This document shows, in pieces, positions 1-48,081 of a stretch of 48,081 bases of DNA. Under the pieces are notes generated by a model. The model was given only the letters and a program-made list of their open reading frames with translations. It was not told where the DNA came from and ran no database searches. Numbering within the stretch: the stretch's first letter is position 1; each line of letters begins with the position of its first letter. The position numbers and the translations under genes were made by a program. This stretch comes from Escherichia phage AN_ECEAS: sequence record PP944860.1. One strand, written 5' to 3'.

Positions 1-75
1 TTACTTCCAGTGCTTGGTTTCTTAATCCCATTCATCACAACCGAGCAGGAATGGTCAGTTGAGTTTAACCCTCTA
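1..75. repeat. terminal direct repeat (identical to 48007-48081)
   Basis: Exact 75-bp identity of the two window ends. Confidence 0.95.
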
Positions 76-3581: not shown

Positions 3582-4526
3582 ATGGCTATTAAGTTTGACG
3601 CTGAACAAGCGAAAATCACTGCTCACCTAGAGCAGATGGGCGTAGATAAAGCTGACGCCGCTGGCATCTGGACCGTCAAGCAACTGACACAGACCCTGAA
3701 GCGCAACTACGAGCGTGAATATACCGACAACTCTGTTGTTAATATCTTCCCGATCAGTAACGAAATCCCTGCTTCTGCTAAATACTTCGAGTACCCAGAA
3801 TTCGATGGCGTTTCAATCGCTCAGATTATCGCAGACTACTCCGATGACCTGCCGCTTGTTGACGCGTTCATGACTGAGAAACAAGGTAAAGTGTTCCGCT
3901 TCGGTAACGCATTCCTGATCTCCATCGATGAAATCGCAGCTGGTGCAGCAACTGGTCAATCTCTGTCTGCTCGTAAACAGGCTCTGGCTTTTGAAGCTCA
4001 CGACAACCTGCTTGACAAACTGGTATGGTTTGGCTCTGCTCCGCACGGTATTAACAGCGTATTTAATACCCCCAACGCAAGCCGCGTAACCCCGAACGCA
4101 TGGGTTGATGCCGCTGCTGCTGTTAACGATATCACTCGAATGATTGATGCTATCGAAACTAACACGCAGGGTATGCATACTGCTACTGATATCATTCTGC
4201 CAGCCTCCGCTCGCCGCTTGATGCAGCAACTGGTTCCTGGTACTACGATTAGCTATGCTCAGCTGTTCGCAACTAACAATACCAGCGTAAATATTCGCTA
4301 TTTGCAGTTCCTGGACGATATTGATGGCGCTGGCACTAAAGCAGCTCTGGCGTTTGAAAAAGACCCGCTGAACATGAGTATTGAAATTCCTGAGGCAACC
4401 CACGTATTGCCGGGTCAGCCGAAAGATTTGCATTTCAAATACCCTGTTACTTCCAAGTCTACAGGTCTGGTTGTTTACCGACCTCTGACTCTTGCTATCA
4501 TGTCTGGCATCGAAATTACCGCATAA
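3582..4526 (+). CDS. putative major capsid protein
   Basis: 314 aa; strong sigma70-like promoter upstream, RBS AAGGAAG, strong terminator directly downstream; position in head module. Confidence 0.5.
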   Translation: MAIKFDAEQAKITAHLEQMGVDKADAAGIWTVKQLTQTLKRNYEREYTDNSVVNIFPISNEIPASAKYFEYPEFDGVSIAQIIADYSDDLPLVDAFMTEKQGKVFRFGNAFLISIDEIAAGAATGQSLSARKQALAFEAHDNLLDKLVWFGSAPHGINSVFNTPNASRVTPNAWVDAAAAVNDITRMIDAIETNTQGMHTATDIILPASARRLMQQLVPGTTISYAQLFATNNTSVNIRYLQFLDDIDGAGTKAALAFEKDPLNMSIEIPEATHVLPGQPKDLHFKYPVTSKSTGLVVYRPLTLAIMSGIEITA

Positions 4527-32372: not shown

Positions 32373-32846
32373 ATGATTTACGTGTTTGATATTGATGGAA
32401 CTGTTGCTAACAATGAACATAGAAGCCACCTCTTACCATCTAGTGACCTTCACTTGACTTCAAGTTGGAGTGATTACAATAGAGCCTGTTCTGGAGATTC
32501 ACCGATAATCCCAATGATAAACATGATGAATGCGTTAGCTGAGTTATCGCCAGTTTACATCATGACTTCAAGAAGTGACGAAGTCGAATGTATGACGCTT
32601 GAATGGCTTCAGTATAATAATATTAATTATGATGGAATATATATGAGGAGTAGATTGGATAACAGAAATGACTATATCATTAAAGAGATGTGGCTAAATG
32701 ATTTGTGTAATGGTGACAAAGCAAGTGTGATAATCTTTGAGGATAATCCTAATGTTATCAGTCACCTAAGGAATTGCGGATATACTGTAATGTCAGTTTG
32801 TGAATATAAAGAATTACCAAAAGACTGCGAATCTCACGGAGAATAA
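32373..32846 (+). CDS. HAD-family phosphatase
   Basis: N-terminal FDIDGT (DxDGT); AT-rich composition; RBS GAGGAG. Confidence 0.5.
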   Translation: MIYVFDIDGTVANNEHRSHLLPSSDLHLTSSWSDYNRACSGDSPIIPMINMMNALAELSPVYIMTSRSDEVECMTLEWLQYNNINYDGIYMRSRLDNRNDYIIKEMWLNDLCNGDKASVIIFEDNPNVISHLRNCGYTVMSVCEYKELPKDCESHGE

Positions 32847-32847
32847 A

Positions 32848-33402
32848 ATGAAAAAGTTAATCATCCTTAATGCACCCCCTGGTGCTGGAAAAGATACAGT
32901 TGCAGATATCATTGTTAATCTTGGAATTTGCAAGGATAAGGTTTCATTCAAGTCACCAATGTTTAATGTTGCAAAAGGAATACTATCAAGTGATGAGTTT
33001 GATGGATTTATTAATAATTACGATGACCGAGAGTACAAAGAATCACCACACGAATTTCTTGGTGGAATGACTGTTCGTGAATTTATGATTTGGATTAGCG
33101 AATCAGTTATGAAGCCAGTCTTTGGTGATGATGTTTTCGGCAAAAGGCTCACACAATCACTTGGTGATGGATGCTACATTTGTTCAGACGGTGGATTTGC
33201 GAGTGAAATCGAACCACTGATTGGCAACGGCGTTGAGGTTACATTGATTAGGCTTCACAGGCCTGGTTATACTTTCGAAGGAGATAGTAGGTCATACCTT
33301 AGTTGCGTCTGCGCAAGAGAGATTGATGTTGATGTTATTGAAGGTGATATTAAAAGAACTACAGAAAAAGTAATTAGTGCAATCAATAGCACGAATTGCT
33401 AA
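32848..33402 (+). CDS. P-loop kinase, probably deoxynucleoside monophosphate kinase
   Basis: N-terminal KKLIILNAPPGAGKDTVADII resembling T4 gp1-type dNMP kinase P-loop; RBS GGAG. Confidence 0.5.
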   Translation: MKKLIILNAPPGAGKDTVADIIVNLGICKDKVSFKSPMFNVAKGILSSDEFDGFINNYDDREYKESPHEFLGGMTVREFMIWISESVMKPVFGDDVFGKRLTQSLGDGCYICSDGGFASEIEPLIGNGVEVTLIRLHRPGYTFEGDSRSYLSCVCAREIDVDVIEGDIKRTTEKVISAINSTNC

Positions 33403-33460: not shown

Positions 33461-33634
33461 ATGACTAAATTATACTGCGTTAAAAACAACTCCAAGACAC
33501 TGCCTTTTACCGAGAGCCAACCTTATAGCGGAGAGTCGCTTGGAGATGGTTACTACAAGATTTACGGAGACGATATGACTCACATCCTTGCGCCGATTGA
33601 TGGCTCTTTGGTGGAATTTATTATCGCAGATTAA
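33461..33634 (+). CDS. hypothetical small protein (57 aa)
   Basis: Below track cutoff; dyad-motif promoter, RBS AGAGAGGA, terminator downstream; preferred over antisense ORF 33470..33703. Confidence 0.45.
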   Translation: MTKLYCVKNNSKTLPFTESQPYSGESLGDGYYKIYGDDMTHILAPIDGSLVEFIIAD

Positions 33635-33661
33635 CACATCAAAAACATAGATTTGCATGCG

Positions 33662-33687
33662 GGGGGCCTTTTGGCTCCCTTTTTTTT
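33662..33687 (+). terminator. rho-independent terminator upstream of lysis cassette
   Basis: GGGGGCC-TTTT-GGCTCCC stem-loop plus T8. Confidence 0.65.
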
Positions 33688-33761
33688 GCTTATAATTTGC
33701 CACCGCCTAATGTATGATATTTGCACTATGTATTGACAAATTAGGATTTAAAGGTGATCAC

Positions 33762-33977
33762 ATGAGGGAAGTAATTAACGCCGCCACGGCATCAACCGGC
33801 GGAGCCGCTGTAACTGGTGCCGCAACTGGTCAAATGACTATAGCAATAATCAGCCTTGTGGCTCTTGTTGTTTTCGGGCTGTGGGGAGCATATTGGAAGT
33901 TTAAGGACAGTCAGGCAATCAGGAAGGCTCTAGAGTCGGGTGATTTAAAGACAGCTATCAATATTAGGAGTAAGTAA
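33762..33977 (+). CDS. putative holin (single TM segment)
   Basis: TM segment MTIAIISLVALVVFGLWGAYW with charged C-terminus; directly upstream of endolysin. Confidence 0.5.
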   Translation: MREVINAATASTGGAAVTGAATGQMTIAIISLVALVVFGLWGAYWKFKDSQAIRKALESGDLKTAINIRSK

Positions 33978-34462
33978 TGAAGCAGAAGCTGGTAATTAGT
34001 GCAGCGACGGCTGTGGCAATATACATCGCAGCGCCGATTATTGAGCTAGTAGAAGGTGTGGAATACAAGCCTTACATGGACATTGCAGGCATTCCTACGG
34101 TTTGTTCAGGTATCACTGGTCCTGATGTGGTGTGGGGTAAAAAGTACAGTGCAAGGGAGTGCAGGAACTTACTGGAGAAACACATCCAGATTCATGGAAA
34201 GTATGTGCAGGATGCAGTAACTTACCCAATCTCTCCACAGACAAGGGCGGCGTTAATCAGCTTTAGCTACAACGTTGGTGGCGCTGCAATGAGGAAGTCA
34301 ACGGCAGTAAGGCTGATTAATCAGGGCAAGATTGAAGAGGGTTGTAATGCTCTCGCCTCCTGGAATAAAGCTCGAGTAAATGGCAAGCTAAAAGTTGTTA
34401 AAGGCCTCGTTAACAGGCGCAACGAGGAGATTAAATTATGCTTAAGTGGGGTGGGTAAATGA
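33977..34462 (+). CDS. endolysin, lysozyme-type with N-terminal signal-anchor (SAR-like)
   Basis: Catalytic spacing E-x8-D-x5-T (ELVEGVEYKPYMDIAGIPTV); hydrophobic N-terminus ISAATAVAIYIAAPII. Confidence 0.7.
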   Translation: MKQKLVISAATAVAIYIAAPIIELVEGVEYKPYMDIAGIPTVCSGITGPDVVWGKKYSARECRNLLEKHIQIHGKYVQDAVTYPISPQTRAALISFSYNVGGAAMRKSTAVRLINQGKIEEGCNALASWNKARVNGKLKVVKGLVNRRNEEIKLCLSGVGK

Positions 34463-34845
34463 AGGCTGCGTTAATTGCTGCGGTAATTATACTTTCTGGT
34501 TGCTCGGCAACATCTGCGCTGACCGGGTTGATTGGTAGTAAGCCAGAGATTAGCGCTCAAGCAGGTGCGGAGAATAACAAGGTTGGAGTAGGGCTAACTA
34601 ATAAGGTTGATTCAAGTTCCAGCGCAAAGGCTGAAGTGAAGAACTCTAAGGTTGACACTCTTGATAGTTCAAGCGGTAAAAAGACTTCTGATAACTCAAT
34701 CAAGGCATCAACAATCACGGCTGAGAAGATTGAAATCACCAACAATGACTCGTCTGCAATCCCGTGGATTGGGAGTGGAATCATGTTTTGCGTCATCATC
34801 ATTCTGCTCTTAATGATATTCAGGAAAAACAAAAAAGCCCCGTAA
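34459..34845 (+). CDS. unimolecular spanin (lipoprotein signal plus C-terminal TM segment)
   Basis: N-terminal lipobox LSGC and C-terminal TM FCVIIILLLMIF in one polypeptide; last gene of lysis cassette. Confidence 0.6.
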   Translation: MKAALIAAVIILSGCSATSALTGLIGSKPEISAQAGAENNKVGVGLTNKVDSSSSAKAEVKNSKVDTLDSSSGKKTSDNSIKASTITAEKIEITNNDSSAIPWIGSGIMFCVIIILLLMIFRKNKKAP

Positions 34846-34859
34846 TGGGGCTATTTTTA
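34836..34859. terminator. bidirectional terminator between spanin gene and convergent minus-strand operon
   Basis: AGCCCC-GTAAT-GGGGCT stem-loop with A-run upstream and T-run downstream; includes spanin stop codon. Confidence 0.7.
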
Positions 34860-43315: not shown

Positions 43316-43391
43316 GTTCTGCTGGCGTAACAGGATAACGCAAAGACCTCCTAAGTCTTAGTTACTGGTTCGAGTCCAGTGCGGAACACCA
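43316..43391 (+). tRNA. tRNA-Arg (anticodon CCU), CCA encoded
   Basis: Hand-folded cloverleaf: 7-bp acceptor stem, U8, D-arm GCGT/ACGC, anticodon stem AAGAC/GTCTT with loop CTCCTAA, T-arm ACTGG-TTCGAGT-CCAGT, discriminator A. Confidence 0.8.
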
Positions 43392-47019: not shown

Positions 47020-48081
47020 ATGGTAAAAGCAGATTCATACGCCACGCAATTTCTTGGTGGCTCCAGTGATGGTAGCGAGATTTACGGGCACTTTGGCAAC
47101 ACGTATCTTACACCTCCTTTCGCTGATTCACTGTACGCATCAAACTCAATTGTACGCCGCATCGTCGACACCATACCGGAGACAGCAATCGCCGCAGGTT
47201 TCCATATCGATGGTATTGATAACGAAGGTGAATTCTGGTCCAGGTGGGATTACCTGAAGGTTAACGAGTCAATCTCTGACGCATGGTCATGGGCGAGGTT
47301 ATTTGGCGGCTCTGCAATTGTGGCTATCGTTAAGGACAATCGTGCGCTAACTAGCCCGGTACGTGAAGGCGCGGAACTTGAATCACTTCGCGTTTATGAG
47401 CGTAGCCAGGTAAGAGTTCAGACTAAGGAGGAAAACCCTCGCAATGTGCGATTCGGTAAGCCATTAACGTATCGCATCACGCCAGAAGGTGGCGCCATGT
47501 TTTATGATGTGCACTACTCGCGAGTTCACATTATTGATGGCGAGAAGATTCCTAGTTCATTGCGTCGCGGTAATGACGGGTGGGGTGCTAGCGTTCTGGT
47601 TCCTGACCTGCTTGAATCAATCAAGGATTATCAGACGTGTGAGAAACTGGCAACTCAGTTATTGCGCCGCAAGCAGCAGGCGGTGTGGAAGGCTAAAGGC
47701 CTTGCTGAACTGTGTGACGACGCGGAAGGTTTTGGTGCGGCGAGGTTGAGGCTTGCCCAGGTTGATGATAACTCTGGCGTTGGTCGCGCGATTGGTATCG
47801 ACGCTGAAGCTGAAGAGTACAGCGTTCTTAACTCGGATATTGGTGGGATTGATGGATTCCTCGATAAGAAGTTCGACAGAATTGTTGCTCTGAGCGGTAT
47901 CCATGAAATCATTCTCAAAGGTCGTAACGTTGGCGGGTTGTCATCAAGCCAGAATACAGCGCTAGAGACTTTCCACAAGCTAATCGACCGCAAGCGCAAT
48001 GAGGAGTTACTTCCAGTGCTTGGTTTCTTAATCCCATTCATCACAACCGAGCAGGAATGGTCAGTTGAGTTTAACCCTCTA
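47020..48081 (+). CDS. putative portal protein, N-terminal part (ORF open at window end, continues at 1..285)
   Basis: ATG 47020 with RBS GGAG; no stop before window end; position after terminase. Confidence 0.5.
   Translation, partial: MVKADSYATQFLGGSSDGSEIYGHFGNTYLTPPFADSLYASNSIVRRIVDTIPETAIAAGFHIDGIDNEGEFWSRWDYLKVNESISDAWSWARLFGGSAIVAIVKDNRALTSPVREGAELESLRVYERSQVRVQTKEENPRNVRFGKPLTYRITPEGGAMFYDVHYSRVHIIDGEKIPSSLRRGNDGWGASVLVPDLLESIKDYQTCEKLATQLLRRKQQAVWKAKGLAELCDDAEGFGAARLRLAQVDDNSGVGRAIGIDAEAEEYSVLNSDIGGIDGFLDKKFDRIVALSGIHEIILKGRNVGGLSSSQNTALETFHKLIDRKRNEELLPVLGFLIPFITTEQEWSVEFNPL
48007..48081. repeat. terminal direct repeat (identical to 1-75)
   Basis: Exact 75-bp identity of the two window ends. 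Confidence 0.95.

Follow-up and report, generated by a model that had tools for sequence, protein, structure and literature searches.

The closest described systems are the lysis cassette of phage T1 (genes 13, 12 and 11) and, for the endolysin, phage 21 R21 (3HDE/3HDF) and DLP12 RrrD (4ZPU), the prototype SAR endolysins. The T1-type lysis module is already well known and, as lysis modules go, ordinary. T1 endolysin expressed alone lyses E. coli and the cytoplasmic T7 endolysin does not (PMC10954549), as expected for a self-exporting SAR enzyme, and T1 holin expressed alone is barely toxic, with an MIC above 3.2% arabinose (PMC10954549). T1 gene 11 complements lambda RzRz1, and LSGC is the functional lipobox of its product (PMC6139136). 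The definition of the gp11 family includes a short periplasmic helix followed by at least four beta strands (PMC6139136), and disruption of the outer membrane has been demonstrated for T1 gp11 only (PMC6139136, PMC10954549).

The window, by which we mean the whole stretch of 48,081 nucleotides that was analysed (Escherichia phage AN_ECEAS, PP944860.1), carries the sequence of Escherichia phage ES/ES10 (OR466728; family Drexlerviridae, subfamily Braunvirinae) in circularly permuted order, with 100% nucleotide identity to phage ES. In the OR466728 record all three lysis genes are labelled "hypothetical protein", and in relatives at 83–87% identity the same genes are annotated as holin, lysozyme and (unimolecular) spanin. 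The features discussed below are as follows.

33461–33634, + strand: gene for a DUF7244 (standalone SH3-like) protein of 57 aa, homologue of T1 gp14 (PF23896)
33661–33680, + strand: rho-independent terminator upstream of the cassette, GGGGGGCC-TTTT-GGCTCCCT followed by T8 (terminator scan)
33762–33977, + strand: holin gene, T1 gp13 family, 71 aa (PHROG 2877; similarity to T1 gp13)
33977–34462, + strand: SAR-type endolysin gene, GH24 'true lysozyme' (muramidase) of the R21 type, 161 aa (PF00959, PHROG 7)
33989–34042, + strand: codons of the predicted SAR domain, residues 5–22 (LVISAATAVAIYIAAPII; uncharged run of 18 residues)
34052–34099, + strand: codons of the catalytic triad E26, D35 and T41 (E-x8-D-x5-T; regular expression search)
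34459–34845, + strand: unimolecular spanin gene, T1 gp11 family, 128 aa (PHROG 1804 'Rz-like spanin', E=1.9e-46)
34459–34503, + strand: lipoprotein signal sequence (MKAALIAAVIILSG, then the Cys) with lipobox L12-S13-G14-C15 (regular expression and sequence)
34765–34821, + strand: C-terminal inner-membrane helix of the spanin, residues 103–121 (WIGSGIMFCVIIILLLMIF; best 19-residue window, mean Kyte–Doolittle (KD) 2.74)
34836–34852, both strands: bidirectional rho-independent terminator between the spanin gene and a convergent gp10-like gene (scan of both strands)

The ORF list gave the three lysis genes as same-strand ORFs at exactly these coordinates, each preceded by a Shine–Dalgarno-like element read from the letters (AAAGGTGA, AGGAG and GGGGTGGG, in gene order). 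The holin and endolysin genes overlap at TAATG and the endolysin and spanin genes at ATGA, and such overlap of stop and start codons points to translational coupling. All three proteins gave significant family matches (PHROG 2877, E=6e-37; PF00959, E=4e-35; PHROG 1804, E=2e-46), far above chance in strength, and the holin gene lies immediately 5' of the endolysin gene in 9/9 loci examined. In alignments, neither the catalytic residues nor the lipobox Cys varied among the Drexlerviridae subfamilies. Gene order, motifs, homology to T1 gp13/gp12/gp11 and R21, and the terminators are read directly from the sequence. At this locus the phage, a member of the Drexlerviridae, thus very probably carries the canonical lysis cassette of the T1 type, made up of three genes. 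A lysis cassette of three genes at 33762–34845 had been proposed in a preliminary description of this DNA, and the ORFs, the family matches and the T1 homology bear it out. T1 similarity, a signal-anchor and a lipobox, whose joint absence would have spoken against that proposal, were each looked for and all were found.

Comparison with T1 by BLASTP gave similarity to gp11, gp12 and gp13 (E=3e-24, 1e-46 and 5e-30 respectively). The two cassettes share the gene order, the catalytic triad and the LSGC lipobox, their proteins are nearly the same in size (71/71, 161/162 and 128/133 aa, here/T1), and they have the same surroundings, with a gp14 (DUF7244) gene and an exonuclease gene upstream and convergent gp10 and helicase genes downstream. 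However, the lysis proteins are only 54% (gp13), 48% (gp12) and 38% (gp11) identical, and megablast found no match to T1 at the DNA level. T1- and TLS-type endolysins carry a YY-NPKTGK insertion that is absent here (the closest endolysin is a Rogunavirinae enzyme, at 57%), and ES has PNKP-phosphatase and kinase-like genes at the site of the T1 HNH endonuclease. The source phage belongs to the subfamily Braunvirinae, and T1 to Tunavirinae. The cassette had been put forward as the main sequence-level argument for a T1-like affiliation, a role that it does not fill, as the neighbouring homologues of exonuclease, helicase and gp10 are closer to T1 (65%, 57% and 54% identity) and spanins of the gp11 type are likewise present in Drulisvirus (Autographivirales) and in Pectobacterium phages. 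The u-spanins of KP34-like Klebsiella podophages (Drulisvirus) are of the same family, with 47–55% identity over 80–96% of the length, although these phages belong to a different viral order. The presence of this spanin family in Autographivirales indicates that the gene is passed from one phage lineage to another and cannot serve as a marker of T1-like phages.

The endolysin matched PF00959 (E=4.3e-35) and PHROG 7 (E=1e-49), and is 48% identical to T1 gp12 and 43% identical to R21; in the PDB it matched 4ZPU (RrrD) and 3HDE/3HDF (R21), with E of about 1e-27. A single-sequence AlphaFold2 model of the protein was unusable (mean pLDDT 39.9, pTM 0.31). The E-x8-D-x5-T triad that had been described was found as E26, D35 and T41; it is invariant in 10 sequences and aligned to that of R21 (LEGVSYIPYKDIVGVWT). 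The predicted SAR segment (residues 5–22) is preceded by MKQK and followed by E23 and E26, and has a mean KD hydropathy of 2.28, with 44% Gly/Ala/Ser/Thr and neither Cys nor Gly. On an insertion-energy scale applied without position weighting, its best 17-residue window (6–22) gave a sum of 1.3 (KD 2.19), comparable to R21 (0.15, KD 2.29) and T1 gp12 (2.7, KD 1.68). In 10/10 aligned endolysins there was a corresponding stretch without charges and, close to its end, a Pro. On sequence criteria, these results uphold the reading of the protein as a SAR-type lysozyme with an N-terminal hydrophobic signal-anchor.

Relative to R21 and RrrD, the identity of 43% extends across the whole catalytic domain, with identical triad residues, four conserved Cys residues (43, 62, 123 and 155, the only ones in the protein) and an uncharged, Cys-free N-terminal anchor. 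On the other hand, the N-terminal region is 9 residues shorter here, and the SAR domain is Ala-rich without Gly, whereas that of R21 is Gly-rich. The rest of the cassette also differs from phage 21, as the holin is unrelated and a u-spanin takes the place of the Rz/Rz1-type two-component spanin. With no Cys in the SAR segment and an Asp (D35) as second catalytic residue, the enzyme is predicted to be activated as R21 is and not by disulfide caging as in P1 Lyz. Spontaneous release from the membrane is presumed; as points against it, the segment lacks Gly and somewhat exceeds that of T1 gp12 in hydrophobicity. The basic N-terminus of the protein, with an Ala-rich hydrophobic core behind it, is also signal-peptide-like, and the segment could in principle be a cleavable Sec signal peptide, or else a permanent anchor, in place of a releasable SAR domain. 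However, the best small-x-small site (I-A-A), the sole AxA-like site, is followed at +1 by Pro20. Pro at +1 blocks signal peptidase I. Furthermore, the protein is homologous to R21, whose uncleaved SAR domain joins the active fold, and the catalytic Glu (E26) lies only 4 residues past the hydrophobic run, as in SAR enzymes. A signal peptide or permanent anchor is therefore very improbable, and the segment is best read as a SAR domain.

The spanin is 35–38% identical to T1 gp11 (38% by BLASTP), and homologues were present in 1175 phage records, many of them annotated as u-spanin. As previously described, it combines a lipobox with a C-terminal transmembrane helix in one protein, in the manner of T1 gp11. 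It has exactly the LSGC box of T1 gp11, neither Cys15 nor Ser16 varies in 10 relatives, and Ser16 at position +2 predicts sorting to the outer membrane. The C-terminal helix (insertion-energy sum −3.9, unweighted as above) lies within a hydrophobic run that spans residues 98–121 and is followed by the tail RKNKKAP, predicted to be cytoplasmic; a hydrophobic C-terminal segment and a basic tail were also seen in the aligned relatives. Cys residues occur only at position 15, the lipoylation site, and at position 111, inside the transmembrane domain, and thus none is periplasmic. A sole internal ORF on the + strand of the spanin gene (34652–34813) was considered as an embedded Rz1-like lipoprotein gene and rejected, as it has no lipobox. 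Pfam gave sub-threshold noise only for the spanin, and in a PDB sequence search the best match was no lower than E=0.27, with no solved relative.

Kongari et al. (2018, PMC6139136) placed a protein in the gp11 family if it shared 40% identity or more with a member across 40% or more of the length. The spanin is 54% identical to that of LF82-40 and 49% to that of Pocis76, both of which share 41% identity with T1 gp11; from its sequence it would thus belong to the family by linkage through LF82-40 and Pocis76 only, its direct identity to T1 lying just below 40%. The further published features of the family were found as well, namely a lipobox without Asp at +2, a C-terminal transmembrane domain with a basic tail, and no periplasmic Cys.

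The holin matched the PHROG 2877 'holin' profile over 1–71 of its 71 residues (E=5.9e-37) and aligned with T1 gp13 at 54% identity without gaps; homologues were present in 824 phage records. A Pfam search gave sub-threshold noise only and matched no holin family. The start at 33762 is backed by the AAAGGTGA Shine–Dalgarno element and by the conserved M-R/K-E/D N-terminus. A longer ORF of 87 aa from 33714 was rejected, as its ATG is ATT in phiA2-1 and the conserved N-terminus starts at M-R/K-E/D. A script found one strongly hydrophobic segment, residues 25–45 (nucleotides 33834–33896; KD 2.0–2.3). It is preceded by a Gly/Ala/Thr-rich N-terminal segment (about residues 4–23) and followed by a basic C-terminal tail (7 K/R versus 3 D/E) that is predicted to be cytoplasmic.

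The single strong segment agrees with a holin that crosses the membrane once (N-out/C-in), and the T1 GenBank record notes a 'single transmembrane domain' for its holin. The competing interpretation, which concerns topology only and not the role of the gene, is a class II pinholin with two helices (N-in/C-in), in which about residues 4–22 would form a labile TMD1, SAR-like and able to leave the membrane as that of S21-68 does. T1-family cassettes have been listed as 'pinholin and SAR-endolysin' (PMC6139136), and two putative transmembrane segments and class II pinholin status have been stated (PMC11447400). Holin residues 4–20 gave an insertion-energy sum of 6.1 (KD 0.95) versus 6.2 (KD 0.49) for the membrane-inserting TMD1 of S21-68, on the same unweighted scale. 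Moreover, the N-terminal segment is conserved, with G14 invariant and G13, G19 and G23 nearly so, and in 10/10 relatives it has charged or polar residues on either side. Against two helices, the spacer between the segments is only 1–2 residues (G-Q), compared with a loop of ~8 residues in S21, and profile comparison with S21-68 revealed no homology (hhalign probability 0.3%, E=0.24). The two proteins are alike in size (71 versus 68 aa), in the basic cytoplasmic C-tail, in the place directly 5' of a SAR endolysin gene, and in a Gly/Ala/Ser/Thr-rich N-terminal segment of equal hydrophobicity, but the gp13-type holin has almost no loop, no sequence or profile similarity to S21-68 and, at the N-terminus here, no dual-start (antiholin) motif. 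Weighing these points, we regard the two-helix pinholin as a tentative alternative, with somewhat less than even support, to the single-pass topology.

The preliminary description had called the holin single-TM and pinholin-like. The one strong segment is compatible with the first part; as to the second, homology to S21 was not found, although the N-terminal segment scores like the TMD1 of S21-68. It had also taken the SAR endolysin to imply a pinholin, which does not follow, as a SAR endolysin alone does not imply one. In the literature found on the gp13 family there was no demonstration of pinholin or small-hole function. It is conceivable, but unlikely, that the gp13-family holin is either a convergent pinholin with a releasable TMD1 unrelated to that of S21, or a timing or regulatory factor triggered via another protein, for example the DUF7244/SH3 protein; the latter is considered because of the weak toxicity of T1 holin alone.

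The DUF7244 gene lies between the exonuclease and holin genes, upstream of the first terminator. Its product matched PF23896 over 1–57 of 57 residues (E=7.4e-27; 93.6 bits versus a cut-off of 27) and is 41% identical to T1 gp14. A role of this gene in the lysis module has recently been proposed (PMC13164509), and the cassette might on that model be a four-gene module in which the DUF7244/SH3 protein works with the endolysin, as has been suggested for KanT1 and T1. The PF23896 match and the gp14 homology fit this model, as does the occurrence of the gene in 188/522 Drexlerviridae, always beside the lysis cassette when present (PMC13164509). However, most Drexlerviridae lack the gene (PMC13164509), an intrinsic terminator, itself conserved, stands between it and the holin gene, and the protein has no signal sequence or transmembrane domain, so that it is predicted to be cytoplasmic, with murein out of reach before lysis. 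We consider a four-gene module rather improbable and retain the cassette of three genes.

The terminator at 33661–33680 (RNA fold −17.2 kcal/mol, z=−2.9) closes the upstream transcription unit, and 8 Drexlerviridae phages, T1 among them, have a hairpin with a T-run at this position. At the other end, the terminator at 34836–34852 folds with −12.2 and −14.4 kcal/mol (z=−3.2 and −3.4), and the TAA stop codon of the spanin gene lies within its hairpin loop; similarly, in the T1 record a terminator is annotated across the end of gene 11. The cassette is probably one transcription unit between these two terminators. A scan for sigma-70 promoters from the upstream terminator to the holin start gave no convincing candidate, with a hit count equal to the shuffle expectation. 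The conserved TATTGACA at 33731–33738 was rejected as a promoter, as it has no usable −10 element and leaves no room for a Shine–Dalgarno element. Rfam gave no match over the region.

From homology and established knowledge of phage 21 and T1, lysis would proceed as follows. The host Sec system would export the 161-aa GH24 muramidase, whose weakly hydrophobic SAR helix would tether the restrained enzyme in the inner membrane. The 71-aa gp13-family holin would meanwhile build up in the inner membrane, trigger at a set time and collapse the membrane potential. Depolarization would then free the SAR helix, and the endolysin would refold to its active form, as R21 does, and degrade the peptidoglycan. 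The 128-aa u-spanin would receive its lipid at Cys15 and go to the outer membrane, with its C-terminal helix staying in the inner membrane, so that it threads the murein meshwork; with the wall removed, it would be free to draw the two membranes together and disrupt the outer one.

The finding is of little import beyond the naming of genes. It provides functional names for three genes and one neighbour that carry "hypothetical protein" or "tail tip protein" in the ES/ES10 record, and ES10 is a candidate for phage therapy against uropathogenic E. coli. As antibacterial payloads, the u-spanin and SAR endolysin of T1 are already under exploration, so the close variants described here may serve as comparators. 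The wider questions that the locus touches are family-wide, namely the topology and hole size of gp13-type holins and the part of the DUF7244/SH3 protein in lysis.

ORF calling recovered three lysis genes on the plus strand exactly where the preliminary description had placed them, and the observation of a three-gene lysis cassette was thus confirmed. The cassette region shares 100% identity with Escherichia phage ES (OR466728), a phage of the Drexlerviridae (Braunvirinae) from sewage in Pakistan, and, as found by a terminator scan, is flanked by two intrinsic terminators.

Features of the lysis region
32373–33402, + strand: PNKP-phosphatase-domain ORF (PF25109, E=6e-15) and overlapping 200-aa P-loop kinase-like ORF
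33461–33634, + strand: DUF7244 ORF, 57 aa, standalone SH3-like (PF23896, E=7.4e-27, full-length)
33661–33680: upstream intrinsic terminator
33762–33977, + strand: holin ORF, 71 aa
33977–34462, + strand: endolysin ORF, 161 aa
34459–34845, + strand: unimolecular spanin (u-spanin) ORF, 128 aa
34836–34852: downstream bidirectional intrinsic terminator, its loop holding the spanin stop codon

In the raw sequence, the holin stop codon overlaps the endolysin start (TAATG) and the endolysin stop overlaps the spanin start (ATGA), with a Shine–Dalgarno-like element before all three starts (AAAGGTGA, AGGAG and GGGGTGGG). RNA fold prediction gave −17.2, −12.2 and −14.4 kcal/mol for the terminator folds, with z between −2.9 and −3.4. 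Just 5′ of the holin ribosome-binding site lies an octamer, TATTGACA (33731–33738, +), which is kept in ES, phiA2-1, LF82-40 and Pocis76 and missing from T1. No acceptable −10 element was seen 3′ of this octamer, and the search for a sigma-70 promoter serving the cassette gave no candidate.

The endolysin matched PF00959 (E=4.3e-35), and its nearest solved structures were the signal-anchor-release (SAR) endolysins RrrD (4ZPU) and R21 of phage 21 (3HDE/3HDF) at E ~1e-27. A motif search found E26-x8-D35-x5-T41, whose residues line up with the catalytic ones of R21 and do not vary among ten sequences covering five Drexlerviridae subgroups plus R21. Residues 5–22 (LVISAATAVAIYIAAPII), which come after MKQK and end four residues before E26, are uncharged and Cys-free; these sequence features support the SAR-type lysozyme of the preliminary description. 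According to the signal-peptidase I rule, a proline after the site argues against cleavage; the sole AxA-like site in the anchor is directly followed by Pro, which argues against removal of the N-terminus. The best 17-residue window (residues 6–22) had an insertion-energy sum of 1.3 compared with 0.15 for the R21 SAR domain (per-residue values after Hessa et al. 2005, without position weighting, for comparison only) and a Kyte–Doolittle hydropathy of 2.19 compared with 2.29, so that on two scales the predicted anchor resembles that of R21. The enzyme is about equally distant from T1 gp12 (about 46–48% identity) and R21 (about 42–43%), and its best relative is a Rogunavirinae enzyme (57%), suggesting that the endolysin gene may have been exchanged inside an otherwise syntenic cassette. 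The YY-NPKTGK insertion seen in the T1, TLS and Webervirus enzymes is missing from the ES endolysin.

The spanin matched PHROG 1804 'Rz-like spanin' (E=1.9e-46) and combines, as the preliminary description had proposed, a lipobox and a C-terminal helix in one protein. The lipobox LSGC (Cys15, Ser16) is the same as that of T1, with Cys and Ser invariant, and the helix (residues 103–121) is followed by RKNKKAP. The periplasmic part of 85 residues is Ser/Ala/Lys/Thr-rich with zero Cys, and periplasmic Cys is likewise missing in all 58 surveyed u-spanins (PMC6139136). Identity to T1 gp11 was 38% (E=3e-24), or 35% in the multiple alignment, and falls under the 40% threshold for the gp11 family (PMC6139136); the ES spanin is 54% identical to that of LF82-40 and 49% to that of Pocis76, both of which are 41% identical to gp11.

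The holin matched PHROG 2877 'holin' along its entire length (E=5.9e-37) and no Pfam family, had homologues in 824 phage records, and aligned gaplessly with T1 gp13 over all 71 residues (54% identity). Its basic C-tail holds 7 K/R and 3 D/E. The single-TM topology first assigned to it agrees with one strongly hydrophobic segment (residues 25–45) and with the note in the T1 GenBank record. The conserved, Gly/Ala/Thr-rich N-terminal segment AATASTGGAAVTGAATG is as weakly hydrophobic (insertion energy 6.1 for ES, 5.0 for T1) as TMD1 of the phage 21 pinholin S21-68 (6.2). The latter inserts into the membrane and later exits, and thus hydropathy cannot settle one versus two helices. A two-TM class II pinholin, as described in PMC11447400 and in keeping with the 'pinholin and SAR-endolysin' given for T1-family cassettes (PMC6139136), is possible but somewhat doubtful, as merely Gly-Gln separates the two segments and homology to S21 was not detectable. 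Nor could a pinholin-like holin be deduced from the SAR endolysin, which does not require one; u-spanins function with either type of holin–endolysin system (PMC6139136). Since the T1 holin by itself is hardly toxic on expression (PMC10954549), the holin function of the gp13 family rests mainly on gene position.

Upstream, the DUF7244 ORF is 41% identical to T1 gp14 and is named 'tail tip protein' in the ES record. A 2026 paper linked this standalone SH3 family with the Drexlerviridae lysis module and proposed an accessory role (PMC13164509). However, the terminator that sets the gene apart from the holin is kept in 8/8 aligned phages, and the protein has no export signal and would therefore be cytoplasmic; these points call for caution, and we consider membership of a four-gene lysis module unlikely. 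The ES phosphatase and kinase-like ORFs sit between the exonuclease and DUF7244 genes; such kinase genes occur together with SH3 in only 7/522 Drexlerviridae genomes (PMC13164509).

Comparison with T1 gp13, gp12 and gp11 did reveal similarity (up to 54%, 48% and 38% identity respectively), yet the cassette, previously taken as the main argument for T1 affiliation, is on sequence comparison not its best marker. The flanking exonuclease (65%), helicase (57%) and gp10 (54%) homologues are at least as T1-like, and members of the spanin family are also present in Pectobacterium phages and in Drulisvirus, podophages that belong to a different order.

On the phage 21 and T1 paradigms, Sec would export the lysozyme, which the SAR helix would keep inactive in the inner membrane until the accumulated holin depolarises it; the helix would then be let go, and the enzyme would refold in the R21 manner and degrade murein. 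Disulfide caging as in P1 Lyz is unlikely, given a Cys-free SAR segment and Asp as second catalytic residue. The u-spanin, anchored by lipid at Cys15 in the outer and by its C-terminal helix in the inner membrane, would be freed by murein loss to pull the two membranes towards each other and break open the outer one. Experiments on T1 orthologues agree with this scheme: gene 11 complements lambda RzRz1, with the lipobox required (PMC6139136), and E. coli is lysed on expression of just the T1 endolysin but not of the T7 enzyme, which is cytoplasmic (PMC10954549).

Relative to OR466728 the window is circularly permuted, beginning at record position 4361; its identical ends (1–75 and 48007–48081) look like an assembly overlap rather than a biological terminal repeat. 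Phage ES was published as ES10 in a paper that says nothing of a holin, an endolysin or a spanin (PMC10957765), and all three lysis genes are labelled 'hypothetical protein' in its record. In OR466728 33960–43360, the exonuclease homologue and a 527-aa protein homologous to gp9, the annotated 'DNA helicase' of T1, bear the same label, while ORFs of 61–67 aa are tagged 'DNA helicase' and one of 73 aa 'tail assembly protein'; the deposited annotation of this locus appears unreliable. Rfam (58.9 bits) and ARAGORN agree on a single tRNA-Arg gene (anticodon CCU; 43316–43391, +).

Taken together, our results support a holin, a SAR endolysin and a T1-type u-spanin, with caveats on topology, pinholin and T1 affiliation. 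This is an already known kind of system in a genome already deposited, and in the relatives TR1-3, phiA2-1 and IME542 (83–87% nucleotide identity) the same genes are labelled holin, lysozyme and (unimolecular) spanin; the value of the result lies in the corrected annotation of the ES genes.
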